Numbered from the whole stretch's first letter, positions 28,506 to 63,196 are shown. The stretch: 63,196 nt of DNA, filler included, from Sluysia triapertura (GCA_046118255.1; 5 parts of 5 records of this genome joined end to end with filler, not necessarily neighbours in it), one strand, 5' to 3'. Notes: generated from the sequence alone by a model not told the origin. A program made the numbers and translations.

Positions 28506-28754
28506 ATTACCTTTTTATGACTATGCTTATATTTATTCTTTGTATTTACATTTGATGTTATTTGTCAATTGAATTTAAAATGATCTATTGAATCTGCAGG
28601 ATCCTTCTATCTGAAATTATAAAAATATAAAATTTATAAAAAAAATTAATATTAATTAATTTCTGCAACAACAAAAATTAAAAAATCAATAGTTGTGATG
28701 TTTGAAAATGTATAATTCTATGTGTTATTATTGTAATAATTTCACTTGTATTTA

Positions 28755-29027: not shown

Positions 29028-29044
29028 AAATTGTTAAAAAAATT

Positions 29045-32190: not shown

Positions 32191-32779
32191 TAAACTGTAA
32201 AATTTTTAAAAATGCTTTTATAAATTGTTGAGCAGAATTAGCGACTCAAAATAATAATTCTTTTTGAGACTACAATAATACGATTACCTGTGCTTGTTCA
32301 AATGATTGTGTTTTAAATTCTAAAATAATTGCGACAAAAATTTGGTGTATGCTGATTGGTTGGCCAATAATGAGTATGATTATAAAATTTTTATTATTGG
32401 AAAACTGTCATTCGTTGACAGCAATATGAAAATCATTTAATGGTAAACGGAAATTTTTTAAATTAATAAAAATAATTAATATTTGAGAAAATAATAATAA
32501 TATTGAATAATGAAAATAATAATAAATTGAAATAAAATCATAATAATAATTTTAATAATAATAGGAAAAAATAAAATAAAATTAATAATAAAAATGAAAA
32601 TAAAAAATGCATAAAAATTTTTACATAAATTCTTTGCTTTTTATTTATCTTTCTTTAAATTAAAATTCTTTTCCTTTTCTTTGAATATAAAATTAAAATG
32701 TAAAAAGAATTTATGAAGTAATGTCAAGAGAGTGTAATAACCTAGTTAAAGGTGTTAATGGAAATTCTATTTAGTTTAT

Positions 32780-37419: not shown

Positions 37420-39010
37420 GTTGGAAGTCGCCCAATTAAAAATAAAGCCAACAACATGCGTCTGGACAGAAGAGCAAGTTGAATTCTAGGGGCATCGCAT
37501 CACGGGATGGTATTAAACCAAATCCAAGTAATCAAAGTTCCATAACCAGAGAACTCAAGTTTTTAGGTCTCGCGAACTACTACCGAAGACAGGTTAAAGA
37601 TGTTGCTAAAATAGCAGAACCACTACGAAAATTAACAAAAAAATGACGTAGAATTCGATTGGACTGACGAACAATCTAAGTCATTTATACATCTAAAAGA
37701 AAGGCTTACTGCTACACTTATATTAATTTTTCCAGATGTTAAGTGATGAAAGTAATTACGCCATTGAAGCAATCTTAGGTAAGAAAAATAGTAATTACTT
37801 AGGAGTTATGGCATATGCAAGCCGTAGATTTAACAATTCAGAAATGAATTATTATACGATAGAGAATTGTTTATGCATGTAAATTATTTAGACACTATAT
37901 ACTAGTACAAAAAGTTTATTTGTACACTAATCAAAAAACTTATTTGCATAATCACCAAGATGAAATAGACTAAATAAATGGTTTACAAAATTATCAGAAT
38001 TCGATTTACAAATTAGACTAACCAACATAGATGAAAAAGGAAATATAAACTTTATAAAATTTATGACAATTTCTGGAAAAGTCGAAGATCCCAATGAAAT
38101 TATTAAGTATCAAAAATAAAAGGAACATTAAACGAAAATAAAGTCAAACAACATGCATTTATTGACGATCTATTAAGATTTAAAAACGCCAAGATGAATG
38201 GAAAACTATTGTCCCTTTTTCAATTCCATGACGAACAACAATTAGGAAGAAATTTATCAACAAGAAAAACAGTGTCCAGAATTAAAAATAACTATTATTT
38301 AGAGAATATGGCAAAGGATTGTGCAGTTTGCTGCCGAAGAAAAAACAGGACAAAGAATAAAAGTACCTTTGAAACCTATGGATATTATGTAACCACAAAA
38401 TATAACAAAATATAAATATAAGTATTATATTAACAAAATATAAGTATTTAACAAAATGCTCTGATTGAGAACGTAGAAAAGCTAGAACAAATTCTTGTAG
38501 AAAAAATTATATACACCAAGAAAACTATTTACTAATCAAAATACCAATTTCATTAGAGAATTTATACGTCTCTAACCATCTTTAGTTAGTGGAGAAATTT
38601 AATCGAACATTTACAAGCCTCTTACAATCATATATTAACGACCGACAGAATGATTGGTACTTATGCATAGCACCATGCTTATTCGTCTACCACAGTTCAG
38701 TACATCCAGCAACAAATTTTACTCCATTTTATCTTACGTATGGATTTTATCTTATATGCTTGTTTATTTAGAATATTTACAATATTTTAAAATCACCGAA
38801 TATGCAACTATCTTTGGAAGTACTATCAAGAAGCTTACAAATACACATATGACAAAAAGCACATGAGCATAAATTTCGGATGGGAGATAAGTATTAGTTG
38901 ATTACCCATTGTAAAAACCAAAATTGCTCTTCAAAATTACATAAACCATTCAAATGCCCACATGAAGTTATGAAAATTACATCCACTAATTGCATTTGTG
39001 ATACATGATA
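37420..39010 (+). mobile_element. Ty3/Gypsy pol remnant: RT end, RNase H, integrase
   Basis: LKIKPTTC..VEF*GH, FLGLANYYRR, IAEPLRKLT, FDWTDEQSKSFIHLKERLT, MAYASRRFNNSEMNYYTIE, FHDE..RKTVSRIKNNYY..CAVC, EKFNRTFTSLLQSYINDRQNDW..HPATNFTPFYLTYG, KLHKPFKCPHEV (decayed GPY/F). Confidence 0.93.
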
Positions 39011-39099
39011 ACAGGTGTAAAATGACACCAAAGAATAATATATTTTACGAAATAGAAAGGTTGGAAATAAAATCTTGTAGGTTAAACCAAAAACCAAGT

Positions 39100-39642
39100 A
39101 CCGACAAAATCTCATCTGTACTATTCATTGAATTTTCAAAGTCATATATTTCAGAACATACATTTAAATGCAGATGGATAAAAGCTGTAATAGATACAGG
39201 AGATACTACATATGCAGTTCACAGAAGTTTTAAACGCATTGAAAGTGACACTGATAAATCAAATAATGCAGTTTAAGATATTAACATATGCCCATACTAG
39301 TGCAATATAATTTTAAGTGAATATACAGTAGTACCTATAAATGTATAGGACAACAGTCCATTTGAATTAATAATTAGCAACTTCGACGATAAAGTTATAC
39401 ATAGTAAATATAGATTTGTCAAATTACCACAAGGATCACATATGATGGTACCAGAAATTGTTGTTCCATGTGTTGAAGATGAATTAACATTGTTACAAAC
39501 GCCGATTCTAAATTCGGTCTTTCAGTTTCCGGAAGCAACAACTCATGTATCTATCTCTCTGATATCAACTCCAGAACTACCCAATATTCAAACTTTGAGT
39601 ACAACATTTGAACCTTCCACTGAATCCATAATCTCGCCGTAA
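39100..39642 (+). mobile_element. Retropepsin-like domain downstream of the integrase, then a Pro/Thr/Ser-rich tail
   Basis: LFIEF...RWIKAVIDTGDTTYAVHRSF; DTG at 39193-39201 in a typical hydrophobic-hydrophobic-D-T-G context. Confidence 0.55.
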
Positions 39643-39709: not shown

Positions 39710-40950
39710 ATGAAATTGTTTGTGACACTACTTATTATTGCATCATATTGGACGGTTATAACTGCTACAGAACCGACTGAGAAGGAAGAATTTCGAAATA
39801 TGAATATAGTTATTAACAGCGAAAGAAAACAAGAAATAATATTTACAATAGCGATTGGAAAATCTAATTCATTTCTAAAAACCTTATTTTAAGACACACG
39901 TTTGTGGTTTACTGTATTTACATGAATCCGACCTATGCTAATAGGCTTCACTACAGATAACACCGAAAATTCACGGGCTGTACAAAAATTTAAGACAAAA
40001 CGAAACAATGTGATGATGTAAAGTTAAACGATAAACCGACTTATGAGAAAGCAACAAAGACAGATTCATTAAGGAATATCTCAAACAGACCATGGATAAA
40101 GTTTTACTTTTCGATGTAGTATATGTGATGGGAACTTTATAAAAGGAACTTATTGCCATGGTACTACTAATGATGACTTTTTTAACTTATTATCATAAAC
40201 AGATATATAAATTTGAATATTTTGAGTTTTATAATTTGGATACAGAGCTGAAAGTTAAATTGTTTCATAAGGATATTCGAGTTAAATTTTAGTACTTCGA
40301 TTATTTCGGAATATCACATAAACAATCTAATAAAGCCATACGTTAAATGCTCCGCTTTTCATGCTAATGAGAAACGACATAATACAGCTAGAGCGATTAC
40401 ATTTTGCATATTAGGCACACAAATATCTTTACTTTATTTGAATCTAATTAAATAATATACGCTCAACCTTAGTAGTTTGCATGAGCCTTTCACATATTTC
40501 TGAAATGCATGCAATTCCTACAAATACTTATTTGAAAAACCTAATACCAAAAAATATTCAACATAAAATTACCTTAGAAGCTCATTTATGCTACTATACA
40601 TAGAAACGGTAATAAAATGATCAATATCACAATGCAATGTTGTACTCCAAATTGGTATCGTGACGAATTCCATATTTCAAAGCAAGATTTTATTGGATTG
40701 TATTTTTGAATATCAATTAGAGTTTAAATATAGTCCAAAGGTTGGCTCGAAAAATGTATTAGTGTAAAAACACAAAATTAGAATGAATCCTTTCGTCTTC
40801 CAAGAACTCTCAATGATGATCGAAGTGCCCCTGACAATCTACCGTTGGAAGATAATACCATTATTATCACTTTTGAATTTCATTATGGATTAATATCTCC
40901 TAAGCGCGACATTAAATTATTTCATCTACCGAGTATTAGAATGTTGATTA
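39710..40950 (+). pseudogene. Degenerate extra ORF with signal peptide downstream of Gypsy pol (env-like position)
   Basis: MKLFVTLLIIASYWTVITA|TEPTE signal peptide, basic FKTKR motif ~85 aa in, Cys-containing decayed continuation. Confidence 0.45.
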
Positions 40951-41779: not shown

Positions 41780-42413
41780 CTCCAAAGATTCTGGTTTATA
41801 ATATATTATTTCATATTGCGCTCATATCTACTACGAAAGTACTCAAAGGCGCTTAAGGTAAATCATTCACCATAATATTTCTGAAACAGAAACAACTTTC
41901 CCTTTTTCTTATATATTTCATAATCTTCTAATAATTTGACATTCTCTGGTAAGTGGTTGTATATTTTTGATACAGTATACAACCTATCACCTAGTTTGTT
42001 ATCAATGTGGATTCCGTATAGATTATTGTCTCAATGAAATATTCATCTTGGTTTCCAATTTTCGTATTATTTCTAAAAGATATTCAGGACTTTCGTACTG
42101 TAAGCATTTCTAAATTATTGTCATAATTTTAAATTATATTCTTGCTTTTATTGACAATCAATGTAATTCCTTAAGATAAAGATGTTATATGAGATTTTCT
42201 TCCAACTTGGAGAATTAGTCTTGCAGCTTGATTAATTATTAAATGTAATTTTTTCCCTTTTCTATCTGAAAATGAGTACAATAAACCATTGTTAAAATCT
42301 ATGTTACTAGTTATCAATGTATCAACAATAAGTTTAGCTGTTTCTTTATTAATATATTTTCGAATATGCGACAGTATTTTTAATTGATATTTACATTTTC
42401 TAATGTTAGCCAT
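41780..42413 (-). mobile_element. L2/Crack-type LINE ORF2 C-terminal region
   Basis: IRKYINKETAKLIVDTLITSNIDFNNGLL...INQAARLILQVGRKSHITS..LKELH.LSIKARI.FKIMTII.KCL is the canonical post-RT block of L2/CR1-group elements. Confidence 0.9.
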
Positions 42414-43091
42414 ACCTCGAAAACAAGCAATTTCATTATAAAAATTATTATAAAATATAATTTACAGTTTCTTAAAAATAATCCATCACTTGTACCCCCT
42501 ATCTATTTTATAATTATTACATTATTTTACTATTAAAAATTAATATTTTTAATGTTAATTTACGTAAATGCAATCACATTAATATTATCAATATCATAAA
42601 ATACAAAATGTTCCTTTATTTGAATGTTTATTATTGCATTGTAAAAATTTAAATGTTTTTCGAATAAAATATAATTACATGAAAACGCAAAATGTCGTTC
42701 AACAAAAGTATCAATTTCCTAATCACTCTAAGAGTTGCTTCAACAATACGATTAAGACAATTATGAAATCAGAATATAATTTGAAAAATCTGAAACATTA
42801 TTTTGAAAATCAATTAATTCTTCGATACTTAAAATTATACATGTAATATCATTAAGCTTATGTAACATTAAGATTGTAATACATAAAATAAGGAATCTAT
42901 CTAATAAAATATACCACAGATAATAATTTGTACAAAAATTCTATAAAAAATTTATAACATAATATACAAAACAATTTACTTGTAGGTAGTTCAATTAAAG
43001 TAGTTTTAAAATTACTAATGTAAAATTGAGTAAAATTTAGCATAAAATTTGTTTTATTAAATATTATTTTAATACTTTAGTAAAGAAATTT

Positions 43092-45639
43092 ATGGAAGAA
43101 AATAATACTTTTGAAAATATTACATACATATTTAAGTATTTGGATGATAGAGCAAATGAAAACTTTAACCAACTTATGTCGGACTATAATTTTCTAATTA
43201 ATGCATCAGATAAAGATAAGTTTCAAAAATTAAGTAAGAATTTTATTAAATCATTATTTTAAATTAGCTATAGAAATAATTCAAAATATATTTGCAACCA
43301 AGGCATACATAGATTCTGTATATGATTACTTAAAGGAAAACGTTAGACCAAATTTAAGTAATTATTATGTCGATCAGTCAAAAATCGATGACACATCTAT
43401 CAAAAATAATTATTTTGTCACCGATGTAAAATCTATTGGAAACATTACAACTTTTAATAAAAAAGTATGTGCTACAAGTACACCAAAGGCAGTAAAATGT
43501 ATGAAGCGTGGAATTTTGAATAAGACATCTGAAGAGGGCGAAATAAACAGTTTCGGAGATAATTTAAGGTTAATTGTTATTTATTATAATTTAATTAAGT
43601 TTATTTTAGACGTAATGTTGACAATATTATAAATGATCTACAATGTGACGACTTTATTCTTGAGATCAATGATTCTAAATATAACGATTCAAAAATTGAA
43701 AATTGGGAACTTACACAACAAATGTTAGTTTATTATACAAATTAAATTAAGCTCTATTATAATTTTCAGAAGTTTGAATTACATCGAATATGATGATTGT
43801 ATGTTATTAATTAATTTAATTAAATTAAATTCTAGACGCTAGTGATTCAGATCAGTTATCAATTAATGAAACTGAATTAAATAACGAAAATATAGAAGGT
43901 AAAATATATGTACATATAATAGAATAACAATTTAGATAAGTATGCATGCAGTATAAAAAGGATCAATGATTCTATATATAACGATTCAAAAATTGAAAAT
44001 TGGGAACTTACACAACAAATGTTAGTTTAATGCAAATAAAATTCAACTCTATAATTTTCAGAAGTTTGAACTACATCGAATATGATGATTGTATGATATT
44101 AATTAATTTAATTTAACTAAATTCTAGACGCTAGTGATTCAGATCAGTTATCAAATAATGAAACTGAATTAAATAACGAAGGTAAAATATATGTACATAT
44201 AATAGAATAATATTTTAGATAAGTATACATGCAGTATAAAAAGGATCAATGATTCGAAATATAACGATTCAAAAATTGAGAATTGGGAATTTTCACAAAT
44301 ATTGGACGATGAACCAAATAACGAAGACATAGAAGATAGAAATGACTTAAAATGCAATGATGATCAATATATAAATTTTAATGAAAGGAAAGATTCAAAA
44401 TATAACGATTCAAAAGTTGAAAATTGGGACATTTCGTATGAGTATGTATTTGTAAAATAATTTTATAAATTTATTTTAATTTTCAGAAGTTTTAATAACA
44501 TCGATGACGATGATAGTATGCTATTCGTTTAATATATTGATAATTTATAGGTTTTACAAATTCATCATATCATTTATTAAATGAAAATGACGATTATGAT
44601 CTTTTAAATGGTGATCTAGAAACATATGACGATGTAATTGAAGATTACCTGGAAAATATTCGAAAAAATCTAGATTCTGTTAGTGTACACAAATTAACTT
44701 TCCAATTTAAATTTCACTAGTTATTTTCTATTAATGTTACATGCAAGTAAGAACTCTCTTATCAGTCAAAGACGAGACTATGAAAAAATGTCGGCTTTTA
44801 CAGTAAAAAAATATATTAATATCATTAAATAATAAATATTCATAAATTAAACAAAATTTTTGCAAAAAGAAATTTGCAGATTCCCGAAAATGGCGGATAA
44901 GAGTAGCTGCGTATTGAATAAATAGTTTTAATGAAAAAATTAACTTTGTTATTTTGAGTCCAATGGACCTGCATGGTATGCAATACATATTAAAAAACAT
45001 TAATGACAAGGGAACTAGACCAGATAACAAAATAATATTTCTGATTTTTATGTATTTTTACAATTAATACAATTTTAATGTTTAAAATTGACCATATATA
45101 AACAAGTTATTTAATTATATTTGAAATTACAAAATACAGAAACTTATGTGGCTTGTGTTCAATTAATAATTAATTTTTTAATTTTAGTTTTCAAATGAAG
45201 AAATGACTTTGGACACTTTGCATTTTCTCATGAATACAATCCGTATATTTTCTAATAAATTAAAAAACGATAATATTCTTAAAAGATTGCCACAACTGGT
45301 TAGTCTATTGAATCATCTAAATAATTGTATTTTTAGCAATTTCAGAAACAATCCTTTTTGTACAATCACCAATTTTGGGAAAATTTGTACGACATCGTGA
45401 AAATTTTATTTAATTTTGTTGAAACCATTACAGATATTCAAGTTGAGAATACAGAAATGAAAAATCAAATGAAATCACTTTTAATTGAAAATGACGAAAA
45501 ATACAAAACAAACAATGAATTAGAAACTAGAATTTCGTTCAGGAATGATATCATGACCGATATCAAAGAAATTATTTTAATTTTTAATAAAGAACTGAAT
45601 ACATTACGCGAATTTAAAAAAATTAGACACATGCCATAA
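43092..45639 (+). CDS. Multi-exon gene: helical N-terminus, acidic ~55-59-aa tandem repeats, C-terminal coiled coil; function unknown
   Basis: In-frame chain of short GT-AG introns from MEENNTFENITYIFKYLDD through INDSKYNDSKIENWELTQQISLNYIEYDDYASDSDQLS repeats to FWENLYDIVKILFNFVETITDIQVENTEMKNQMK...KIRHMP*. Exons in 44690-45190 are less certain. Confidence 0.75.
43664..44515 (+). repeat. Intragenic tandem duplication of a 3-exon/3-intron unit (~283-297 bp; two full units plus partials)
   Basis: GATCAATGATTC..ATATAACGATTCAAAAATTGA at 43664, 43961, 44244 and a partial at ~44392; intron sequences are duplicated too. Confidence 0.9.
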
Positions 45640-45821: not shown

Positions 45822-46606
45822 AAAATTTTCGATAATATTAAGTGAATATAGAGATATGTAGTCGTCAAGAAAGGTGTCACTTGATATCTAAATGTTTATT
45901 TTTATAAAAGCTATTTAATAAAAGGTGTTTGCGTTTTTTAATTATTATTGCGAGGATTATAAATTAATGTTTGCAACATTAAATAATAAAGTTAAAAATA
46001 ATTTCAAATAAATCAAAATAATCTTAAAATAGCTCAGGAATAAAGGGTGACAGTGAAACTAAAAAACTAAAACCATAATAACAAATATGATAACGAAATT
46101 CCTTCATCCTTTTTCATAATACCCTTATACGCTTTGGTAACCAATAAATTATGTACTAACTATATTACTGTATAAGTGATGGACTTCCAAAAAAAGTAAA
46201 TAATTTAGCAACAGAAAAGAAAGCTAACATGAAAATTTTCGATAATATTAAGTGAATATAGAGATATGTAGTGGTCAAGAAAGGTGTCACTTGATATCTA
46301 AATGTTTATTTTTATAAAAGCTCGAAGATCTTAGAGTTGCATGATTATAAATTAATGTTTGCAACATTAAATAATAAATTTAAAAAAATAATTTCAAATA
46401 AATCAAAATAATCTTAAAATTAAAATAAATCTTAAAATAGCTCAGGAATAAAGGGTGACAGTGAAACTAAAAAAAACTAAAACCATAATAACAAATATGA
46501 TAACGAAATCCATTCATCCTTTTTCATAATACCCTTATACGTTTTGGTAACCAATAAATTATGTAGTGTATATAGACTGCATAAAATAATGGGAAAAGAA
46601 AGCTCT
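45822..46606 (+). repeat. Tandem duplication, ~410-bp period
   Basis: Near-identical copies starting at 45822 and 46232 (AAAATTTTCGATAATATTAAGTGAATATAGAG...CCAATAAATTATGTA). Confidence 0.95.
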
Positions 46607-49698: not shown

Positions 49699-50073
49699 AT
49701 TACATCTTTCAAAAACAAGTTTAAGATAACTTTAAAGATTTCATTATTGCACTGTGAAGCAACAACTACTAATGATACATCATATATACCTTATCATCGT
49801 TGCTCCTTCACAGTTTATTAATTGGTTTTGTTCCTTTTTATCTCATTCATATGTTACAGAAATTATAAAGAATCGAAAGAATAAGATCGTGTTCAAGAAT
49901 GTCAAAGATTTATGCGAATTTTATTTAAGTAATAATAATAATAATAACAATGTCATCGTTGTTGTTGTTATTATTATTATTACTATCATTGTACTTTTAT
50001 TATTATTAATAATCTAAATATAAAAATAAAAATAATTAAAAAACTTAATCATCGCTGTTCACACTGGTTGCTG

Positions 50074-50249
50074 CCATCACCAACGATGACAGTCTATGTT
50101 CAATTTTCATTAGACTGTCAGCGTTGATGATGGTCAGTGATCAGTCATCAGTTTTCATCATCATTTAAATCCATTTATCTAATAATATCCAATCAGAGCA
50201 CAGCATTAGAAAATAATAAGTACTTACTTTTCAACGCTCTGATTGGATA
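50074..50249. promoter_or_regulatory. Two consecutive inverted repeats upstream of the 372-aa ORF; the second is a pair of inverted CCAAT boxes
   Basis: 23-bp arms 50074-50096 / 50111-50133 (2 mismatches); perfect 14-bp arms TATCCAATCAGAGC 50186-50199 / GCTCTGATTGGATA 50236-50249. Confidence 0.7.
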
Positions 50250-50382
50250 GACAAAAATAAACGACTAAAAACACACAATTAAAAATTTTATGTTATTGTA
50301 AGTATTATTAAAAAATTTTTCCAGACGTCTCACAATTAAAAATTTTATTTATTTCTCAGTTAAAATTAATAAGTTAATTCTT

Positions 50383-51501
50383 ATGAAGAACTTCATGTTT
50401 GGATTTAATGAAGTAGAGAATTGTAATAATGAACATATTACTGTATATAACGTTTTTTGTAATTATTATAATTCAATACCATTAAAATTAAAGTATCAAT
50501 CGTCAGATGAAGCACGATATCATGTTTTGAAACCAATTAAAGTTAATGTTTTTAAAAATCGTATAAATTTCGATCAAGACGTCAACGAAGATTTAGCAAA
50601 CGATTTTAATGAGCTAAAAATTGCAGCATCTTCATATTTAGCAATTTCGGTTAGATGGTATAAAGTACGACGCACTCATCCAATGTTTAACTATTCTCAA
50701 ATATCAATAACAACTCTTTATGCAAAATCGATGCACGAACCTAAGGCACTTATATGGATCCAATTGGCTATCAGCTATGATGTTTTTACCCATGAAGATT
50801 TAAAACTAACAATGGAACAAAGCATTTCAGACTCTCCCAAGGTTTGTTATATCTATAACAATATTCTCTCTAAAACAAATAAGCAATTTATAATGAAATA
50901 CATCAGATTATGGTCATTTTACTTCGTGCTACACAAAAACGAACTACAATATGATGTCTATAATCTTCCATCAATTAATATTAATATTCAAAACAAGATC
51001 CAAATTTTGATCAACTCGTTAACGTCATCAAAACTTGAAATAAAATTGACTAGTTTCCCAAATAAGTCAGTGTTTGATATTCCATATTCTGAAATTAAAC
51101 GTATATATAAAGTTGGAGTTCTGGCTAATAAAGATACAATTTTAATCATTTTTAAAAGCAAATGTGCACATTATGCAAGTAACATATTATTTGTACAAGA
51201 ACAGTTTAAAGTAAATGTCCAGTATCTTACAAACTCAATATTCATTAATGAAAAGTTCCAATTCCTTACGAGTCGCAAATGTCTATCTTTATCTACAAAT
51301 TATATTTCGCAATGTACAATGACACGCCTGTTCACTGATGTATTTTACACTGCTCTGCCAAACAACCGTCGGGAAATCAGACGACTTGGTGATAAACTAT
51401 ATTTAAACATGAATTTTCCTTATACTTTTGACTTGTTTTGTCATTTAGGTAGTGTTAAATTGACATATTTATCTAATTATCATTTAGTTTATAGACATTG
51501 A
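50383..51501 (+). CDS. 372-aa intronless orphan protein (may extend ~47 codons past a premature TGA)
   Basis: Longest ORF in the window, very unlikely by chance at this AT content. Possible 5'UTR intron GTAAGT(50298)...CTCAG(50359). The frame continues NWAMKTQRGMLVRKEIK after the stop. Confidence 0.85.
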   Translation: MKNFMFGFNEVENCNNEHITVYNVFCNYYNSIPLKLKYQSSDEARYHVLKPIKVNVFKNRINFDQDVNEDLANDFNELKIAASSYLAISVRWYKVRRTHPMFNYSQISITTLYAKSMHEPKALIWIQLAISYDVFTHEDLKLTMEQSISDSPKVCYIYNNILSKTNKQFIMKYIRLWSFYFVLHKNELQYDVYNLPSININIQNKIQILINSLTSSKLEIKLTSFPNKSVFDIPYSEIKRIYKVGVLANKDTILIIFKSKCAHYASNILFVQEQFKVNVQYLTNSIFINEKFQFLTSRKCLSLSTNYISQCTMTRLFTDVFYTALPNNRREIRRLGDKLYLNMNFPYTFDLFCHLGSVKLTYLSNYHLVYRH

Positions 51502-52200
51502 AACTGGGCCATGAAAACGCAACGAGGAATGCTAGTCAGAAAAGAGATCAAGACTCCAATAATGAAAAATATTATTAAATTGTGGTTAAAAATACAATGT
51601 ATATTTCAAATTTATAATTGTATAATAAAACGAAAGAGATAAAATTAAATCAAATTTTTGTATACTATGTTGCAATAACTACGAAGCTAAAAAACTTCAC
51701 GAAATCCTAAAAATAGACAAAGTTGAATGTTTATTGAATCTTAGTAAAGCAATTTTATCTTTAATTAAAATTTTATGTTTGTATATGTTCGATCTGCATA
51801 AATGTAAATTTAGTTATCTAACTAATTGTGCTTATCTTATAACAATTTTCAAATTAAAACTCTATAATAATAAATTAAACCCCTCAACACGAACCAGAAT
51901 TTTAAATTTATTTATTGAACCTATTAATACAATTTTGAAATCAAATAGCAAACATGACCTTACTTCTTATAACTCAACAATAAGGCCATCCACCACATTT
52001 ATAAGGATGAGTGTTGTAATGTTGTAAATGATACAGACGAGACTTATTATAATGTAATTTTTGCCATGAGGTTTGTGTAGATGAATGTTATGATTGATGT
52101 GATACATAGGTGGGTGTAGGTTGGGCCACCACAACATGCATATCAATACTTGTATACATACGCAACATGATAACTAAGAAATGTAAAATAAGAGTTCACA

Positions 52201-52269
<69 letters not shown>
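52201..52269. repeat. (AAT)n microsatellite
   Basis: Directly visible. Confidence 0.95.
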
Positions 52270-52270
<1 letters not shown>

Positions 52271-52535
52271 TAAAAGCAATAATATCGACGATAATTTAAA
52301 TGACAATATTAAATTGTGATTGTAAAATTGTGTACAGTTTCTAAGTGTGTAATATTATAAAAATTGTGTATGTGTTTGGCGTGCGTGATGTTTTATTCTT
52401 AATTTTATTTTTTTTGTATAATTTGTTATTAAAACTTTCATCATTATCCTCATTTATAAAAACATTACTTAGGTGCTTAATGCATTTAGGAAAATTATTA
52501 TTATTCTTAAAATTCAAATTATAAATACCCAAATA

Positions 52536-52841
52536 ATGAAAACAATTTTCATTTCTCTTACAAATAAACTCATAAAAAGAGGGCTTGTAGTAATATCGTA
52601 CACAGATCACTTTTGGAGAGAGATGAACAAAAATTTTAGTCATTACGATAAATCTACTAAACGTAACTTTTATTACACAACGTTGATAATTTCCACTTAC
52701 AGTTGCCAGAATGAACGCCTTCACCAGAAGATAACACAGAAAGTCGATGCCATTATACGTAATAGAGGTTTGAAATGTGAAAGATGTCTCCATTCAGTTC
52801 AACATGCAAGCTCAACCATTTGGACCATAATATTGATGTGA
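52536..52841 (+). CDS. Orphan ORF with putative zinc-binding motif CxxCxHxxxH
   Basis: MKTIFISLTNKLIKRG...GLKCERCLHSVQHAS; C-terminus probably frameshifted. Confidence 0.5.
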   Translation: MKTIFISLTNKLIKRGLVVISYTDHFWREMNKNFSHYDKSTKRNFYYTTLIISTYSCQNERLHQKITQKVDAIIRNRGLKCERCLHSVQHASSTIWTIILM

Positions 52842-53039
52842 AACGTTTAACTTTAATTCTATTCGTGCCAACACGAAGAAAGACCTAATGATCTCATTAA
52901 AAACAGTTGACATTACGTAATTTAAAAATGGGCTAATTATTAAAAAATAAAATTTAAAATCATTGAAAACACAAAGACTTTGAACATTTAAAGTATAAAT
53001 ATAAAAAGATGATTGTATTTAGTACTGTATACAAACTAC

Positions 53040-53649
53040 TTTTATCACACGTTTATATATTTTACTAAAAGTGGAGCAGCACATCAAACTACTACGTACA
53101 GAAATCAGAGCCGCATCAGTCACTAGTCATCCTGAACACTGCACCATAATAACACCATATCCACATCTGACACAGTAGACCATGCCAGTTTAATGATTAA
53201 AATGAAACCTTAAGTTATTTATAATTGTCTTCCATATCTGGTATTTTAATAGTCATGTATGAAAATAAGGGACTTTTTATACTCTCGCATACAGGGTAGT
53301 TTAGTAACACGTATGATATCTTTACCAAAAAGCAAATAAAACTTCATAATATATCGGTCTAAAATAATAGTTGTATTATCAGATTTAAAATTTCGAATAG
53401 TGATCACAGAGTAAATAATCTGAACATGGAACTACAATAGTACAATACCTACATCTGACACAGTAGGTCATGCCAGTTTAATGTATCACCTTTGGTTGTG
53501 ATATATCTATAACATTTTAAATTTTCTCTGACATGTGGTTTACCGCATTTCAAACATCTTATACGTGACTCATCATGCCAACAATCTAAAACATTCGGAG
53601 TCACATGGTACACGATCCAATCACCAAATGATGATACTAGTACTGGCAT
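53040..53649 (-). pseudogene. Cys/His/Trp-rich orphan ORF with an in-frame internal repeat
   Basis: CWHDESRIRCLKCGKPH; LNWHDLLCQM*VLYY and LNWHGLLCQMWIWCYY are encoded by 33-bp repeats at 53451-53483 and 53163-53195, 288 bp apart. Confidence 0.5.
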
Positions 53650-54276
53650 CGAGTATGTTATGGTTAACTTGACATGTATATATCATAACTTTGTTCGCAT
53701 TTTGAAAAATCGTTTTAGTAATTTAAAATTTTATAAAAATCTATTAATAGTATCAAGGTCGAAATTTTGACTAGTTTTGACTGATTCAAACAAATTTTTA
53801 TCTTTTTCTTTTGTTAATGATTTAATTCCTTAATAAAGCATAAAAATATGACATAAATACAATATATAATACGACATAATATAACACAATAAAATATGAG
53901 AAAATATGAAACTATAACGATGATAGGATGATAGTGGGGATTATCTTTATTGTAAAGCTTGGAGTGTTATTAACTTGAAATTTAATTTTATTCGATGATT
54001 TTATGACTTTCTTGTTTGTGATGTTGTGACTATAGGATTTGATGTAATGTTATGCGATGGTATAAGTGAAACATGTGATATATTTTTGTGATAAAGTTTA
54101 TGATTGCTGTTATTGATGTAATATGATCTCAATAATCGGCTGAATCACCACAGTATATTTTGCTTTTAAGTGTTTATTTGATATTTTGTGTTAGATTACG
54201 TTGAAGTTTGTTTAAGATTTTATTTATTAGAAATGTATTGGATTGCTTTAATGTTTGTCTGTGAATGTGTTTATGA

Positions 54277-54555
54277 CTAGTGTGTTTTAGTCTTGAGCTC
54301 ACCGCAACAGTCATCGTCCTCGTCGCTGGCAGACAAACATAAATAAATATTGACTATTAGTATTAATATAGCAAGAACAGTAACAAATACTATTACATTA
54401 ACGATTAAGATTGTCCTTGTCGGATCATTTCTAATACTGTTAAAACTTTTCGAGTACCATTTGATGCAAAATGCAGGTGCTCCATTTTTTTGGTTGAAAT
54501 ATGAATTCTTTCTATAATATGTCGTTCTTCGGTGGTATATTGGAGCATATCGCAT
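54277..54555 (-). CDS. Small single-pass membrane protein (92 aa), orphan
   Basis: Basic N-terminus, TM segment ILIVNVIVFVTVLAILILIVNIYLCL, acidic/Cys tail SDEDDDCCGE. Confidence 0.6.
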   Translation of the reverse strand: MRYAPIYHRRTTYYRKNSYFNQKNGAPAFCIKWYSKSFNSIRNDPTRTILIVNVIVFVTVLAILILIVNIYLCLSASDEDDDCCGELKTKTH

Positions 54556-54832
54556 ATAGAGTCATTAAATTATTTATGTAATATTCATAAATAACTCAGG
54601 TACTGAAAGTGAGTCTAGAGGGTTTAAGACAGGTAAACCTAATTCGAATATTTGTCTGTAGTATTTTAAATTTTATATCGTATCTAAATTATGGAACTCA
54701 AAATTATGGAATTCAAAAGGAAGTACCATATATACTAGATTTCTGTTACTTTTTGGTATACGAAGATCTCTACCAAAATTGATCGTACAAAATGCGGTTC
54801 ATTATACACATGAAAATGTAAAATTGTTATGT

Positions 54833-56000
54833 TGTCATCAAAACCATTTTAAAATTACAAAAAAACAAAAAAACAGCTTACAGTATTAATTTAAACCTAT
54901 TTTCTAAAAGAGAAATATGATTTTATAAAAAAGTAAATATCTTACTAAAATATGCTGATGATTTTCTTTTATCTAAAACTGGAAAACTACCTTACAGCAA
55001 AATAAATTAATATTTAGAGCCCGCTTACGGTATACGGCTTTCAAATGGTGTATCTGTAAGTAACGTAAAAATATGCCTAAGGAATAACGATATAAAAATG
55101 TTTCTGTAATGACGTATTTCTCTAACGTCTTTAAATTTAATTCTTTATCAACTGTTACTATAACGAAGTCTAAGTCACGAATTTATATATTTATTACCTT
55201 ACCAGACACTAGGGCCAAAAATCTATATAAAATTATCTCAATTCACACAGTATATAATGATGACCAACTTTTAATATAAATTTAAGGTTTTGGTATTATA
55301 ATGTTACAAACAGATTTATATCGTAACTTTACCTTAACTTTATATCACGTCAATAATTATAGAAGGTGTATTATATAAAATTTAAAAAATAAAATATACA
55401 ATTTTTATCATAATAATAATAGAAACAGTAATAAAAATAATTGATTTTTTAAGTAAAATGGCCTTGCCCAAGGACTCCGTTACGTGAATTTATATTTTAT
55501 AATTGGCTTTACGTACCAACGAAAATAATATGATTTTAGAGTTTAAAGAGATTTTATAATTGTGGGGTTTTTAAGATAAGATACTTATAGAATAAAATAA
55601 GATTTTTAACGTGAGTTCACCAACGTAATAGGCTTACCAGTTAGAGCTAGCAATTGGATTTATAGAAAAAAGATTTTTTAAGTAAAGATGGGAATAACTT
55701 CTTAAGATTCTAAAGTGTCTGTAAATTTATTAGGACACTCTTAACTGTGTAAGACTATTCAAATAATTTTTTCTATTAATTCATAATTTAAATACTTAAA
55801 TGCTTATCAGTCAAATCTGGTTGAGTTCTGGAGGTATTTTAATTTATAAACAAATGGGAGTCACCGCTAACTAAAAAATAGCAGTTAAATTTAATAGTTT
55901 GCGTAAACCCTGTGAAAAGGATTTGTAATAAATGATTTTGGAGTATAAGAATTAAATTCTGATAAGGGAAAACTTTATTGTAGTAAAGATTTTATATTTA
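54833..56000 (+). repeat. Long non-coding dispersed repeat (LTR-like start TGTCATCA); related copies at 58640-59480, 60628-60745, 62984-63050
   Basis: CTTACAGCAAAATA...AGAG(C/T)CCGCTTAC(G/A)GTATACG...AATGG(T/C)GTATCTGTAA at 54991-55058 and 58685-58758. GTGAGTT(C/A)ACCAACGTA..GG.TTACCAG at 55611 and ~62984. The first ~110 bp are shared with 60628. Confidence 0.75.
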
Positions 56001-57455
56001 AAACTATGGAAATTAATTATTAATAAAAATGAATTCTATAACAATTTATATTGTATACTTAATAGGGTACAAATGAAAATATAAAAAATTAATAAGTATA
56101 TTACGGATAATTATTGGTTAATTCTTCAAATAATAACAATTTATTAATGATTTTTCGGAAAACTATTATTAATTACAAAATTTTATTTTAAGTGGATTTT
56201 ATGGGGATATTTTTTATGTCCAAAACTTAACATAATAAACTAACGTAGTATTTTTTTGAAAATGAAAAATTCGGTAAGTTTTATATTCAATTTTCCAAAA
56301 TTTGTGAACTTTTTAAAGATTGTGCCACTCTTATCCACTCTTCGTCCGAATAAAATATTTATAAAAATTTGGTTGAAGCTGTCAAAAAAATATTGTGCGA
56401 AGTTGTAAATTTTATGCCCATTTATACCTAATTTAACTGGCCTTGGCCAAATTAAAACAAAATATTCGTTTTAATTATTAAAACAAAAATAATTCGATTT
56501 TGAATTTGATTGATTTTAAAAATATTAAAATTTATATTTAATTAATAAAATTACTCACGTTAGTTTAGATCCAAAAACAATAATTATAATAAAGCAATAA
56601 TTAATAATTTAGGTCCAAAATTATTAATAAAATCCAAAAATATACAATAAAATCAATATATATACATTAAATATACAATAAATTCAATTAAAAATCAATA
56701 ATTTCGTTACTAAAGTAGTCATTATTAAAATATATAACACACAAATTAATCTTAATCATTGTACTTTGTATATAATTGATCTTAGGGACCAACTGAAATC
56801 GGAAAGTTTACGTTGATTTTATAACTCTTACGAGTTTACAAGCTATTTAAATTAAACTTACTGCTTAACAATGTTCTATAATATGAATACATATTGACTG
56901 AATAAATAATTTCGGTGCTAAATATGAACAGCTTGGTAACCACTTTGATTTGAAATAACTAAATTTTCGCAATGTAAATATTGTACAACCAAAAAGATAT
57001 CTTTGACGCTTAGATTGTATAGCCGGAGTTTTGTATCATAAACATATGTAATATGCTGGAATGCAGAAATCAATCTTTGTTTATTTCTTTATTCTTGATC
57101 AATTAACTATGGCGTCTAACTTGCAAAAAATCAATTGTGTAATTCTTCTTTATCTAATTTCTTTATGAAGATTCTAAAATGGCATTGTTTATTATTAGTG
57201 TCTGAATTGTGTCTTACTACAATTTTTGTAACTTTATTTATAGCATAATGGCTATCAGGAGCCATATTAATAATTTTTCATTTATTCAAACAATTCATAT
57301 CTAGAAGGTTCCTTTTTTGAATTAATTTTAAAATAATTAAATATTTTTTTAATGTTAATGTAATTATAATTTTTATAATACTAATAATTTTAATAATTTT
57401 AACAAAAATATAAAATATAATAAAAATATTTATTTACAAGCTTTACAAATAGAAA

Positions 57456-57480
57456 AGAAGTTTCTAGAATGTTCTGGAAC
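57456..57480. promoter_or_regulatory. Perfect five-unit heat-shock element inside an LTR-like repeat
   Basis: aGAAg tTTCt aGAAt gTTCt gGAAc; TATATAAATA ~130 bp downstream; homologous degraded copy at 60751-60770. Confidence 0.6.
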
Positions 57481-57689
57481 ATTTGTTTTAATTTTCATAA
57501 AATTTGCACTGCCTTAGTCATCCGTGACTGTCAATCAAGACATGTATAGGCTTCGTTGTTCTTATTTCCGAATTTCGATAATTTAGTTTTCTTACCTCAT
57601 CCCGGCGATTATATAAATATATTAGCAGTTTAGGATTAGTATATAAATAAACTTTCGTCATAGTAAATAATGTCTAAACAACTTACATG

Positions 57690-58430
57690 CATACATGTTT
57701 GCCATACATTCTTTCAATTGCGGAGTAGTTCATTTCAGATTTAGTGTGGCATTGAATTGCAGAATCTGGAAAAATTAATATTGGTGCCTTAGTAAGTCTT
57801 TCTTTTAAATATGTAAATGCAATTGTTTAAATTCAACATCCTTTATGTCAGCTTCCATTTTAACGAAATCTTTAACTGATCTTCTATAAGGAACTTTTAA
57901 GCTTTATAAAGTTTTCTGGTTGTGGAAATTTAACAAATTTTTTGGATGCCTCTTGAATTCAATTTTTTGTTGCAATGTTTCTTTAAAATTCCACTTGTTC
58001 TTCGGCTCAAAAATATTTTATCTTCCACAGATATTATCGATATCTTTTACGTTTGTTTCAAAATTTTTCAAAACAAATTATTATACGATCTGTGTAATAA
58101 TCGAATTTTACAAATCGATAGAACAAAGTGTATGCATGTTGAAAAGTTGCTGGGGCGCCCGTTAAGTTGAATAGCATCTTTTCACATTCACCAATAATCA
58201 CTTTGTATGTTGTGTTTACTAGCTGACCTAACATTTCAACTATTTTTGGTAACGGAAATACATCTTTTATTGTTAATTTGTTTAATTCTCTAAAATCTCT
58301 ATTTTTTTACTAGTAATACTGAGGACGATAATGGAGAAAAAATCTAGGCTTTATTACTCCGGTCATTTTTATAGTAACAACTTGATCTTGTATTTCTTTT
58401 TGATTACAAATTGGGGTATTTATGGTTTCT
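57690..58430 (-). mobile_element. Ty3/Gypsy RT-RNase H fragment, degenerate
   Basis: DFRELNKLTIKDVFPLPKIVEMLGQL, MLFNLTGAPATFQ, FTYLKERLTKAPILIFPD, SEMNYSAIE; same lineage as 8030-8700 and 37420-39010. Confidence 0.9.
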
Positions 58431-58639
58431 TAAGCATACTTTATCCTCTGTTAAAGATATTTCACCCATATCGTATTTATTTTTTGGCACGTTCTCTAGG
58501 ATATCTACAAATAACAACATAAAAGTGTTCTTTTTGTTTTTTAATTAAATTTCTATTTGTTACTTTAATTTTTCCGCAGTCTTCATCGTATATTTCGCCC
58601 AATAATTTATAGTATTGCTTTTGCTTGTGTTAGTTTTAA

Positions 58640-59480
58640 TATGTATTTCTACCTGCTGGGAGTTTTCTTAATAAAAGAGCCTAACTTACAGCAAAATAAT
58701 AATAATTATTATTCAGAGTCCGCTTACAGTATACGACCTACTAATGGCGTATCTGTAAAAACAATTATTAAGTTTAATCGTATAAAAATACTCTTTGCCT
58801 TAACTTAACAATAGTGGAAAAAATCGTCGTTTATGTCAACTGATACTAAATAGCTTAAAAATAATTAAGACCAACACTGGCTTATGTAATATTTGAGTTA
58901 ATGTAAAAATCAAGTTAATGATATTTGTATAGAGACGTGTCGTTTTTTAATACTCTCAATTCTTAATTAAATCTTAATATAATGATCGTTAGCTTTTTTA
59001 ATTCTTACTAGAATTTAATGAGATTATATTGTAATCAAGGTATTTTCGATTAAAATGTATTTAATTGTAATTTGACCGTAATCTAAGATAACTATAAATT
59101 TAATTTAACTTACAACGTTAATGTTAGAACAATTATTATAAAAACAGGACTCGAAAGTTTTTAATTTTTTATTACACAATAAATAAAATTAAAATAAAAT
59201 TACTATAAATTTATAAAATTCCAAAAGAGCAATTATTATTAATACCAAAATTTATAAATAATAAAATTATAATAATGATAAAAGTTGAGTTATAATAAAG
59301 ATCTAGCCCTTAGACTCTACCTTATAATAATGATTTTATAGATGACCTTAAGGGCCAACTAAAGAGTAGTGAATTTATATTTTAAATTGATTTTGCGATT
59401 GGCCTAAAGACCAACCGTAAACTTAATATTTTGAGTATAAATTTTACTCAATGTGAGTTTTCAAACTTACGAATTAATTA
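58640..59480 (+). repeat. Second copy of the long non-coding repeat family
   Basis: See 54833-56000; also shares GTGAATTTATATTTTA (~55484 and ~59369). Confidence 0.7.
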
Positions 59481-60076
59481 ATAATGAATATTCGTGTTCT
59501 CAGATTGTCCTTTCTTTTAAATAAATTGATTGCTTGAGAGGGAAAATTATATCCCTCTAATCGTAGACGAGGTATATGATATCGTTGAATGAATTATGAA
59601 CTTGAGAATTACTGGAGCCCAAAGAAAAGGATCAGATGTCGGGAGGTTAAATTGTTGATTTTACTGGCGATGATTGAATTAAACTATAGATGACTAAACC
59701 CAAACAAAGACGTATGATTCAAAATGGCTTAGTGTTATTTTTGGTTTCTTTATTTTTGTCTGCATTTATATACACATAAAGACATATTTTAAATTTTAAT
59801 TTAACTAAACAATTTTCCATTCTTGAACCTTCTTTTAAATTCTTTTTTAATTTATAATAATAATAATTTTAATTTTAATATAATTAGAATAAGAAATTTT
59901 TAAATAATAATAATTTAATAATTTTTACAATAAAATATAAAAATTAAAAAAACTTTTTTGTACACCTTTACGTACCTTATAATCAACAATTCTTTCCAGC
60001 TTAGTTCCTCTATATAATTATGTGTCTCATTAGACCAAAAATAAATTTATTTGTTAAGTATTAACTACTAACATAT

Positions 60077-60228
60077 TGTTGGAGTAAAAGGCCTATAAAG
60101 TGCCAAGTAGTATAATTGAATATATTGAAAATGAAATTGTTAGACGCGGCTGATAGCTCAGTGGTAGAGCATTCGCACTGCGCATCGAAGGTTCGATCCC
60201 CGGTCAGTCCATTTTACGAAGTCTAACA
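60077..60228 (+). mobile_element. Solo-LTR-like element carrying a tRNA-Ala-derived cassette (copy 2)
   Basis: TGTTGG...CTAACA with ATAT at 60073-60076 and 60229-60232. tRNA-like GCTGATAGCTCAGTGGTAGAGCA...GGTTCGATCCCCGGTCAGTCC at ~60146-60210, bracketed by TTGTTAGAC / GTCTAACAA. Confidence 0.8.
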
Positions 60229-60627
60229 ATATAATAAATTGATGCTCCTGAGATAACAATTCAGATATGTTTTTGAAATCGATGTGCAACGTACGGATGA
60301 CCCACAAAGTATTATATAAAATATTTCTATGAAAAATAAATTTATTATTTCATTAGTTTTATCTTTATTTTAAGTTGACAAATTGTAAATTTATTAAGTA
60401 TTAATGTAATAACGATATCTCAACACATTTGTGTGATTAAGGGTTTATTCGTCTGCATTTAAATAAAATTCAAAAAGAAAGATTTTATTTTGTAACCTAC
60501 CGTTTTAATATTTTATTGTGTTGTGTCAGCCCTGACAATTTTGATAGATTTAGAATTTTTTAGTAGTGATTTATAACATTAACTTTATATATTGAGGATA
60601 TTATTAATTGTGATAATTGTGATAGAT

Positions 60628-60894
60628 TGTCATCACAACCATTTTAAAATTACAAAACAACAATTATAACAACTTACAGTATTAATTTAAGTCTATCTTT
60701 ATAAAAGAAACTTATTATCTTAAATGAAAATTCCTTATTAAAAATAGAAAAGAAGTTCCTAGAATGTTTGATTGGCTGTTGGCTTATATAAATAGCTGCA
60801 GTTAATCTTAATGAAAACAAAAAATAATCACAATTTTTTAGACGCCATCTTGGATTTCATTAATTCGATTTATTTACATTTTTTTGGTCGCCAG
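60628..60894 (+). mobile_element. Candidate ~250-bp LTR (TGT...ACA, 60628-60878) followed by a PBS-like TGGTCGCCAG
   Basis: Contains a degraded HSE, ATTGG and TATATAAATA in promoter order; 5' part shared with 54833, middle shared with 57447. Confidence 0.45.
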
Positions 60895-63196
60895 ATTCTC
60901 GTAAAGTATTGATTCTATTGTATTGATTCGTTTCCAGAAAAACTCACTTTTAAATCCATTAATAGCGTAAGTTAGGTTGTTTTTACTGTTCCTAGTGGAA
61001 ATAACAATATTAAAATCAGACATAAAATCTTTAATTTTAATCGTAATTTTAATTTTCAATTTTGAATCGTTACATTTTTTGTCATTATCATCAGTGCTTT
61101 GCAAAATTATTATTAATCTGAGAAAGGTACATTGATACAATTGTTATTAATCTGAGTATCGATATTTTTTGTATATGTCGATTATTAAGTGAATGTCTTT
61201 TAAAAATAATTTAATAATACATATACTAAATATCCTAAATTTAAAGCAAACTTTAATTACACATTTAAATTATATTAATTTTTTCAACAAAATTATTATT
61301 ATTAAGTAATAATAATATTTAAAGGAATATTCTGCTTACAATGTGTGGCTATATATATTTGTAAAATTACGTATTAAATTATTTATTGTTGCATTTTTTA
61401 ATTATTGAATTTTGTATAATTAAATGCTCTTATTGGTTTAATATAAGTTGACTTTTATTTTAAAATAAAGAAATAAAAGATTTTACCGAATTGTATTAAT
61501 AATAAGTAAAAGCACAATTGTTTAAAAGTTTTATTAAAATCATCTCCAAATTATTAAAAAACACAAAATTCGAAAAAGTACAAAATAAATTCATCGTTAA
61601 ATTTTTCTAATTGTTATCAACTATTGTATTCAAGAATCAAAAAATCATACTGGATTTACGTAATTAACCATCTTATATAGTTATATTTTTAATAAATTAA
61701 TCATGAGCATAATAAAAGAAAATTTCTTATAGTAAACTTAAACTCGGTTTTAAAGATCTTTTTAGAACATAATCAAACTATTTGAGAACATAACCTTGCT
61801 AACATTAGCAGAACTATAATTGAAAATATTTTCTTTAAATCTCCATTACTTCCATTTTCTTAATCGCTGATATCTCTGCATCGGCGCTTGACTGTGTAAG
61901 CCCGGTCTCACAAAGGACTCACGAAATACAAACGCATATATTAACACATAAATAAAAATATATTAAAGTTTGTTTATTTTCAAAACGAAATTCTCAAAAC
62001 GAAATACATCTATACGTATCATTTTTGTTGTTAAATACAACCATTAATAAACATAGACATAAATATAAATATAATTCATTACAAACCCTCTCACGAACAT
62101 TTTATCCATTTTAGAACATCATCATATCTCGCCAAACTTACCAAATTCACGTAATTAAATCATTAACGTATAAAAGTTATATTAATTATAAACTAATTAT
62201 AGCTTTTATGCTCATATAGCTTTCTTGGCCTTCCTCGGCAGCACCTCTCAGATTTTAATTTATTATGTATACATTTATATTTTAAAAATGTGTATAAGAA
62301 GATGCATATCAGAAATTTATGTATGATTTATGCTTTTTCAAAAATAAGTTTCCTTTTTTTGTTTGAATTTTTCACTTTTTTGAATATTTGAAAATGTTTA
62401 AAAATGACTAAAAAATTAATTTTAATGTATGTGAATTTTAAAAGCAGTGAAAGAATTTTATGTGGAATTTTATCTGGACTTTATCAAGAGTTTTCTAATT
62501 CAAAGTTGCACAAATTAAGCAAGGTGATGCTAAATTTTGCTGCGAGATATTGTACATTCAATTTGTATTAATTAAATGCGACAATAGCAGTAGTGTCCAT
62601 TGTTAATTAGGACGTCGCACGAGTCGAATTAAATATTTAGTTAAATCAAAATGACGTAAAGCTCAACCAGACAAAATGAAAAATATTTGTTATAAAGTTA
62701 ACTTAGCTGATGCTGTTGATGCATTGCATGAAAAAATGAAAAGTTCTAATGTATGTACAAGTACGCCTTTAAAGAAAGCAGTGGAAGGATCATAGTATCT
62801 AAGTTGTAATGATAGTTTGAGAAAAAGTGTTTATACAACAATAAATCATTTAAATGCAGAAAATGATAATTATGAAAGAAATTGCAAAAATTGAAAGTAT
62901 AATAAATTAAAGTTTTTTAAGCCAGATCTATCTTATGTAATACTTCCTCACGAAATCGATTTGATCAAAGTGAATTTAAAGCTGTGAGTTAACCAACGTA
63001 CTGGGTTTACCAGCGAGGGCCAGCCGTTGGATTTGGTAATATAAAAGTAATGGAGGTTAAGAGAGCTGTATTATTATAATAATACATGAGAGTTGTTTTA
63101 TTATAAAAGAATTTGTTTATTAATTGTGATATTTAAAATATGTTGGGATTCCGCATTTGTTTCATTATTGAATTATAATTTGATATTGTAAAATAG

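Follow-up and report, generated by a model that had tools for sequence, protein, structure and literature searches.

The start of contig 5 (49699-63196) in a 63,196-nucleotide (nt) window of the genome of Sluysia triapertura (GCA_046118255.1) carries an integrated, repeated region with an unbroken gene for a protein of 372 amino acids (aa), several smaller open reading frames (ORFs) on both strands and, on its inner side, the remains of a Ty3/Gypsy element. The window, by which we mean the whole stretch of DNA analysed, consists of five contigs joined by linkers of N. We propose that the region is the 3' accessory region, behind env, of an unusually large Ty3/Gypsy long terminal repeat (LTR) retrotransposon with an antisense, likely spliced gene for the 372-aa protein, and we give this proposal about an even chance of being right. 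We observed directly the order of the genes, the multicopy state of the region, a cassette that some copies lack, and a link between its env-like gene and a Gypsy remnant on contig 4. An earlier note on this DNA had taken 49699-54600 for an orphan cluster of ORFs resembling a multi-gene mobile element, and this was borne out, since the region is integrated and repeated, with many diverged copies and a cassette absent from some of them.

Gene order and copy state

On the minus strand the order is a decayed reverse transcriptase (RT) and RNase H (58429-57617), other repeats, the env-like gene (54717-54277), a high-copy A/C-rich block, a variable Cys-rich cassette, a small membrane-type ORF, then, on the opposite strand, the 372-aa gene, and finally an end of very high copy number. 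From the contig end, the plus strand carries an A/C-rich leader, an 81-aa ORF, a hairpin, CCAAT boxes, a candidate intron, the 372-aa ORF and a 132-codon frame, and these units converge on those that come from the env end on the minus strand. The orphan cluster begins right at the stop codon of the env-like gene. That a high-copy block starts at this stop codon and is joined in other copies to 52317-52377 argues for our proposal.

Copy state was assessed by aligning the contigs of a single public run, X1, which contains 70% of the sampled words and may represent the sample from which the genome came, to 49699-57000. This placed 7,042 records, 5,598 of them less than 95% alike, and three among the contigs listed were identical to this copy, at a depth of 16.8-28.1. 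The aligned pieces are short, and none among those listed runs across the whole stretch. Differences and joints between copies are reported for the 40 and 15 listed, which belong to longer lists with a further 991 and 132. Six among the 15 joints skip the cassette, going from 52317-52377 to 54170-54201, and 70 loose contig ends lie just before 54171. Because there are many diverged copies and some of them lack the cassette, the region is an integrated repeated element and neither contamination nor an ordinary gene.

Summed contig depth, which is not copy number and is read loosely only, is 17,000-34,000 at the contig end, 401-643 in the 372-aa gene, about 6,000 at 51895-52138 and 54091-54334, and 35-45 at 54335-54822 in the env-like part; this may be taken as tens of gene copies, with hundreds to thousands for the short blocks and one or two for the env-like part. 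The first two bins of the block at the contig end have summed depths of 34,219 and 17,003, and position 49770 has 85,089 over 81 contigs; a microsatellite at 49921-50044 may inflate the bins of this block. The drop from the contig end to the 372-aa gene favours our proposal, as such a fall resembles that between LTRs and internal parts, and so do the promoter and intron signals, which point inwards from the contig end.

The pol and env-like remnants

In a BLAST comparison of contigs 4 and 5, the segment 54717-54542 was 71-73% identical to 40206-40353 (z 13.9 against 200 shuffles of the local sequence). Along this alignment the reading frame of the ORF on contig 4 passes into that of a 92-aa ORF (54277-54555, minus strand), the first residues of which come from a shifted frame. 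The earlier note had described this ORF as a small single-pass membrane protein. The ORF does exist and has a strong transmembrane segment (hydropathy 3.35 over 19 residues), but since the contig-4 frame leads into its frame, it is only the C-terminal piece, the transmembrane end, of a broken env-like gene.

The RT segment 58061-58429 (minus strand) is heavily deleted and matches the Ty3 RT 4ol8_A with an E value of 4e-4. RNase H follows it, with a Pfam E value of 0.072 and 82% DNA identity in two patches to the pol of contig 4. On contig 4, RT_RNaseH scored 31.2 bits (cut-off 24.8) and Integrase_H2C2 had an E value of 6e-5, and RT, RNase H and integrase stand there in this order. Only two long matches connect the two contigs, one in RNase H and the other in the env-like segment; their order and orientation agree, and they are 2.9 and 2.3 kilobases (kb) apart, which speaks for our proposal. 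Homologue searches with pieces of contig 4 gave none among 343 and none among 21 candidates. A third decayed Gypsy RT fragment, kin to those of contigs 4 and 5, lies at 8135-8703 (plus strand). Behind the contig-4 integrase, at 38965-39642 (plus strand), is a decayed frame with a second D-T-G motif that we take to be aspartic-protease-like and that had no Pfam or homologue match; a protease after the integrase is an unusual order. Between pol and env on contig 5 there is an extremely high-copy repeat (55555-55798) with a summed depth of up to 255,134 and an A-rich loose end.

The 372-aa gene

The 372-aa ORF is present at the coordinates first given for it and is far beyond chance, as 500 shuffles of 49699-54600 that preserved the dinucleotides had no ORF longer than 159 aa. 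It had been called intronless, which holds for the coding part, but there is a candidate 62-nt intron in the 5' untranslated part, read from the sequence, with a GT donor and a pyrimidine-rich AG acceptor 23 nt upstream of the ATG. Upstream of it are CCAATCA at 50189 and TGATTGG at 50240, which probably form the promoter of the gene and make up a second stem in the same fold as the long hairpin. The fold of 50040-50260 has a z score of -7.5, and none of 200 shuffles folded as well. Rfam microRNA (miRNA) models fit the hairpin in shape only, at 29 bits against cut-offs of 54 and 88, and its pattern had no match in metagenomes. The hydrophobic stretch of the 81-aa ORF is encoded by the microsatellite and may be an artefact.

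Being better preserved, the 372-aa protein had been recommended as the best query for identifying the element, and this expectation failed, as all searches with it were blank or spurious. None of 906 candidates in a homologue search was real, and the one match among 1.84 billion representatives, P0001, was a tandem-repeat artefact. The Atlas search with the whole protein was blank, as were the searches of NCBIfam, PHROGs and phage genomes, and the best match among PDB sequences had an E value of only 1.7. Matches to the related-locus pattern contained no relatives in prokaryote genomes (0 of 93), metagenomes (0 of 277) or viral contigs (0 of 6). Reading through the TGA at 51499 with X, as had been suggested, brought no added family, and this TGA is absent from the 40 differences listed between copies. 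Clear orthology to conventional metazoan genes, which the earlier note had named as the finding that would speak against it, was not seen in the homologue and family searches. The 372-aa ORF is real and unbroken, and it has no relative in any collection searched.

Residues 181-306 or so of the protein are possibly a PH-like module, and we offer this as a lead only. The signals are weak: Pfam SSrecog matched with an E value of 0.047, and the Atlas scored the segment at 0.75-0.76 to PTB, IRS, RME-8_N and syntrophin PH, below the lead level of 0.9, with eight of its top ten in one clan. The PH-domain clan is defined by a seven-strand sandwich with a closing C-terminal helix; the single-sequence model of the module, of low confidence with a predicted local distance difference test score (pLDDT) of 46.6, has strands only. 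Single-sequence folds for the protein were poor (pLDDT 32.4 and 46.6). Fold matches to sliding clamps (best E 0.06, template modelling score 0.09) and to galectins and propellers (Z at most 5.4) were rejected as no evidence, and supposed likenesses between the C-terminus and the Polinton capsid, and between the middle part and the PH domain of eukaryotic RNA-dependent RNA polymerase, found no support in Pfam.

Small reading frames and the variable cassette

In 49699-54600 there are seven ORFs of at least 66 aa, against a mean of 0.86 in the shuffles. The small ORFs are individually within or near chance and not significant alone: shuffles had at least one ORF of at least 66 aa in 58% of cases, of 92 aa in 8.8% and of 101 aa in 5%. 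The 280-codon frame on the minus strand has four stops, and the probability of four or fewer is 7e-7 at the stop rate of the window; a related-locus scan for its 150-aa ORF found none among 32. A 101-aa ORF with a CxxCxHxxxH motif (52536-52841, plus strand) is present as the earlier note had it, but it overlaps this longer minus-strand frame in register. The two strands share an in-register open stretch of 107 codons at 52473-52793, from both strands of which TTA, CTA and TCA are absent. Of the Leu and Ser codons in the overlap these three make up 0 of 15 and 0 of 13; in the half of the minus frame that lies outside the overlap they make up 10 of 24. This is possibly a true overlap of genes on two strands.

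The 66-aa Cys/His/Trp ORF also exists, but the repeat ascribed to it is not an internal one: a direct repeat of 64 nt, it spans the starts of two tandem minus-strand frames, both of which begin M-x-Y-C-V-R-C, and the second of these is the 280-codon frame. In the frame of the 66-aa ORF none of the nine codons changed between the repeats is synonymous. The features of the region and of the Gypsy remnants are collected in Table 1.

Table 1. Positions of features in the region at the start of contig 5 and in the Gypsy remnants of contigs 4 and 5
Feature	Position	Strand	Remarks
Very-high-copy block at contig end	49699-50230		Candidate edge of 3' LTR or other terminal repeat
81-aa ORF, C-terminal hydrophobic segment (hydropathy 3.96)	49772-50017	+	Inside high-copy block
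Long imperfect hairpin	50063-50145		Pre-miRNA-shaped
Inverted CCAAT-box pair	50186-50249		Likely promoter of 372-aa gene; second stem in same fold
Candidate 62-nt intron	50298-50359	+	5' untranslated region; read from sequence
Intact 372-aa ORF	50383-51501	+	Beta-rich, no transmembrane segment; antisense to pol; summed depth 401-643
46 more sense codons past TGA, then TAA	51502-51642	+	
132-codon open frame (80 aa from ATG), Cys/Leu-rich	51629-52027	+	No significant family
56-aa His-rich ORF with hydrophobic segment (hydropathy 2.41)	51967-52137	-	High-copy block, bin depth 6,060; converges on 372-aa unit
Variable 1.8-kb cassette	52378-54170		Other copies join 52317-52377 straight to 54170-54201
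280-codon frame, four stops, Cys-rich motif at start	53183-52341	-	C-terminal half is 150-aa ORF; no Pfam family
64-nt direct repeat, 81% identical	53132-53195 and 53420-53483	-	Spans starts of two tandem Cys-rich frames
66-aa Cys/His/Trp ORF, CxxCxxxH knuckle-like motif	53449-53649	-	Length within chance; weak ZZ-finger match, E 0.066
High-copy A/C-rich block right behind env-like stop	54171-54290	-	Bin depth 5,714; skew block
Broken env-like gene	54277-54717	-	Interrupted by stops and frameshifts from 54717 to about 54500
Decayed Ty3/Gypsy RT and RNase H	57617-58429	-	Upstream of env-like remnant, same strand
Related decayed Gypsy, contig 4	37515-40353	+	RT end, RNase H, integrase zinc finger, protease-like motif, signal-peptide ORF from about 39710

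Proposed origin of the region

If the region is the accessory tail of a large Gypsy element, then this element would have spread by reverse transcription and the high-copy contig end would be the edge of its 3' LTR, in which case the excess depth of the contig end would be due to solo LTRs. The terminal CCAAT promoter would drive a spliced antisense transcript for the 372-aa protein, which may be soluble and, by means of the PH-like module, serve as an adaptor on proteins or membranes of the host. This copy would be chimeric, its old pol-env part and its younger tail having been joined at a shared high-copy block, and cassettes and tails would be exchanged at such blocks. The exchange step is needed because otherwise the joining of an old, near-unique pol-env to a young, multicopy tail is unexplained.

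Several findings weigh against this proposal. By BLAST and family scans, the stretch of contig 5 from RNase H to env gave no integrase match. The label env is suggested by position, by the signal peptide on contig 4 and by the transmembrane segment on contig 5, with no family match. The pol and env parts are full of stops and frameshifts, with env at a depth of 35-45, whereas the 372-aa ORF is unbroken at 401-643. No block similar to this one was found behind the env-like gene of the contig-4 Gypsy (none of five comparisons above z 1.1). In the window, where the contig ends inside the block and the motif scan is weak, we identified neither a second LTR nor a primer-binding site or polypurine tract, and the window has no second copy of 49699-50230. 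A fold search with the low-confidence model of the PH-like module had a best Z of 5.4 and no PH entry in the top 50, and the protease-like remnant (23930-25290) upstream of a second cluster of ORFs, on contig 3, had no Pfam match. Finally, nine among the 40 listed differences lie within the 372-aa ORF, where they are shared by all or nearly all aligned contigs and so private to this copy, and two of the nine are synonymous. At the listed sites this copy therefore differs from its relatives by about 1%, and its decay is neutral, which gives no proof of selection.

The main rival, which we think less likely than not, is that 49699-54290 forms one end of an independent mobile element of DNA type, or of an endogenous DNA virus, whether Maverick/Polinton-like, Helitron-like or of another kind, and that this inserted where an old Gypsy env ends. 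The high-copy blocks would then be, just as tentatively, parts retained by many deleted, non-autonomous copies. The mismatch of age and depth would be accounted for without a chimera and more simply, and blocks of genes that converge and have promoters of their own, as well as short introns and hairpins, in general suit DNA elements; the contig-3 cluster, with its parallel layout and no recognisable pol, fits as well. However, no transposase, polymerase, integrase, ATPase, capsid or helicase family was found in the ORFs tested, the insertion would have to lie a few bases from the env-like stop codon, and no terminal inverted repeat connects the two high-copy ends. As to Mavericks and Polintons, pPolB, rve integrase, ATPase and jelly-roll capsid were found neither in the ORFs tested nor by fold search on low-confidence models, a scan that covers only part of the element if it extends past the contig end, as it may. 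The RepHel of Helitrons had no match among the ORFs tested; hairpins are present, with element ends undefined, and they are longer than is typical of Helitrons.

We consider it improbable that the region is a mosaic, in which a lineage-specific host gene family, that of the 372-aa gene, was amplified by duplication amid unrelated repeat fragments and the small ORFs are chance or remnants. The signals for a polymerase II promoter and an intron would agree with this, as would the several other unrelated repeats on contig 5 and the small ORFs, each of which is within chance. Yet the coding part runs for 1.1 kb without introns, the ORFs of at least 66 aa number seven where 0.86 are expected and are accompanied by the near-open frame of 280 codons, a defined cassette is present or absent between copies, and the private differences are mostly non-synonymous (seven of the nine among those listed).

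Least of all do we believe that foreign DNA (a symbiont, a free virus or an organelle with another genetic code) was misassembled onto host contigs, although the four longest ORFs of the cluster end in TGA, which makes up 23% of the stops in the window, because the G+C content matches the rest of the window, the identical contigs at depth 16.8-28.1 lie amid thousands of related contigs of the same run, and the pattern matches contained no relatives among 93 from prokaryotes, 277 from metagenomes and 6 from viral contigs. Alternative genetic codes were likewise rejected: table 4 adds only 10-47 codons to these ORFs, inside which Trp is TGG, and table 6 is unneeded, with 15 CAA and no in-frame TAA. 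Contamination by another organism had been named in the earlier note as a finding that would speak against it, and no foreign sign was seen.

The cluster on contig 3

The region had also been thought to be another segment or copy of the element seen at 27117-35061 on contig 3. The layouts are indeed parallel, as the contig-3 cluster has on its minus strand an A/C-rich leader at the contig end, a small membrane-type ORF, CCAAT boxes, a short intron and a main ORF in the same arrangement, but no ORF of either cluster matches one of the other at the protein level. Of 17 DNA comparisons, only that of leader with leader beat all 150 shuffles (z 3.5). Homology between the A/C-rich blocks of the two clusters is weak: besides the env control, one of 14 tests was above z 3, and in another set one of 17. 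The contig-3 cluster is thus at best a distant relative, and the kinship is by layout only.

Its main ORF (31449-32205, minus strand) has a frameshift inside a CCCH finger (Pfam zf-CCCH, E 0.011-0.04) that we take to be of the TIS11/TTP type, and upstream of it lie a candidate short intron and, near 32353-32364, CCAAT boxes. Upstream of the cluster, at 23930-25290 (plus strand), are remnants of decayed coding sequence that include a coiled-coil-like part and a protease-like motif. Three copies of an A/C-rich block, 69-76% identical and followed by a hydrophobic Ile/Thr-coding stretch, were found at 14975-15151, 15619-15739 and 27468-27640, and the block behind the env-like stop on contig 5 (54171-54290) is weakly like the first of these (z 3.3).

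Comparison with known elements

The comparisons made here draw on parts of the papers cited. Retand, a plant non-chromovirus Ty3/Gypsy lineage, is described as having antisense ORFs in a region of 2.9-6.6 kb from pol to the LTR (PMC11963269). On our reading, the likeness is that a long stretch, here about 4.6 kb beyond env, separates pol from the 3' LTR and carries ORFs antisense to pol; here the 372-, 132-, 101- and 81-aa frames are on the plus strand and pol is on the minus strand. In contrast to this plant lineage with its ORFs of the TRP28 domain, the host here is likely an animal, an env-like gene comes first, both strands are used and there is no family match. TRP28 was not seen, no family being above cut-off in any ORF, and we do not claim membership in Retand.

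Errantiviruses, the metazoan env-carrying Ty3/Gypsy elements, have three ORFs, namely gag, pol and env, according to the main text of PMC13524379, in which the words accessory and extra do not occur; its supplements list 1,512 elements and may include long ones. As in errantiviruses, pol is followed here by an ORF with a signal peptide and a transmembrane segment, but their env is described as of the F or HSV/gB type, and the env-like gene here has no matching Pfam family. Burro, a giant Gypsy element of planarians, is reported to have, upstream of pol, a polyprotein of about 4,900 aa that includes MATH, BIR, BCL2 and env, and the same paper provides a precedent for the capture of ORFs behind pol or env (PMC6431247). 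On our reading, both are animal Gypsy elements with a large extra coding capacity and many copies; in place of a giant polyprotein with MATH, BIR, BCL2 and ankyrin and an env before pol, however, we see small separate genes behind env on both strands. No MATH, BIR, BCL2 or ankyrin domain was found in the ORFs scanned.

The sORF2/FAST-like candidates of insect LTR elements, which were filtered for an N-myristoylation motif and are sense to gag-pol (PMC11952523), share with our region, if it is of this kind, short transmembrane ORFs inside an LTR element. The 81-, 56- and 92-aa ORFs differ from them as described there: they lack a Met-Gly start, the first of them runs antisense and the last is a fragment of the env-like gene. 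In rotifers, LTR elements carry a diverse, family-specific ORF3 behind pol as separate spliced units (PMC5408684). Extra genes behind pol as separate spliced units are a likeness, with splicing only a candidate here; the rotifer elements differ, as far as that account goes, in having a single extra ORF, known domains (GDSL, DEDDy, transmembrane) and a low copy number.

Other features of the window

The G+C content is about 25% throughout the window and CpG is not depleted. Its contigs carry remnants of Gypsy, hAT, LINE-like (long interspersed nuclear element) and SINE-like (short interspersed nuclear element) repeats, from which an AT-rich animal appears to be the likely host. The matches of 41802-42143 to contigs 2 and 3 were considered as pieces of the element and rejected, as we read them as LINE 3' ends; likely LINE 3' ends are at 41800-42461 (minus), 15157-15318 (minus) and 30157-30252 (plus), with no fitting Pfam match, and from their translation we presume them to be of the L2 type. 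A common repeat with a tRNA-like head, likely a SINE, occurs at 60069-60233 and 10448-10607 (79% identical); ARAGORN found no tRNA in 57400-63196. A decayed hAT-type transposase is at 21225-22299 (plus strand; DUF4371, E 2e-6). At 43661-44538 and 45822-46584 are tandemly duplicated sequences, 83-99% identical and with periods near 290 and 410 bases, and the plus-strand open frames 43041-43632 and 45337-45639 adjoin them.

Implications

Descriptions of animal LTR retrotransposons usually include gag and pol and, at most, env or a single extra ORF, and in a partial collection of the literature, at the level of titles and the beginnings of abstracts, no such region behind env was described in an animal. 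We put forward, tentatively, a broader possibility that goes beyond the proposal of an accessory tail: there may be a family of 'complex' Gypsy retroviruses in invertebrates, a counterpart of the complex retroviruses, with at least five swappable accessory genes on both strands behind env, a CCAAT promoter of its own, a PH-like adaptor encoded by a spliced antisense gene, an in-register overlap of genes on two strands and a miRNA-like hairpin, of which the contig-3 cluster would be a distant subfamily. If this is true, then LTR retrotransposons can carry virus-like sets of genes, and there would be new protein families to test for roles in host defence or transmission. If the region is instead the end of a DNA element, then this would be an unclassified multi-gene DNA element that also merits description. 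Either way, several orphan clusters of this genome would be explained as one class of repeat.

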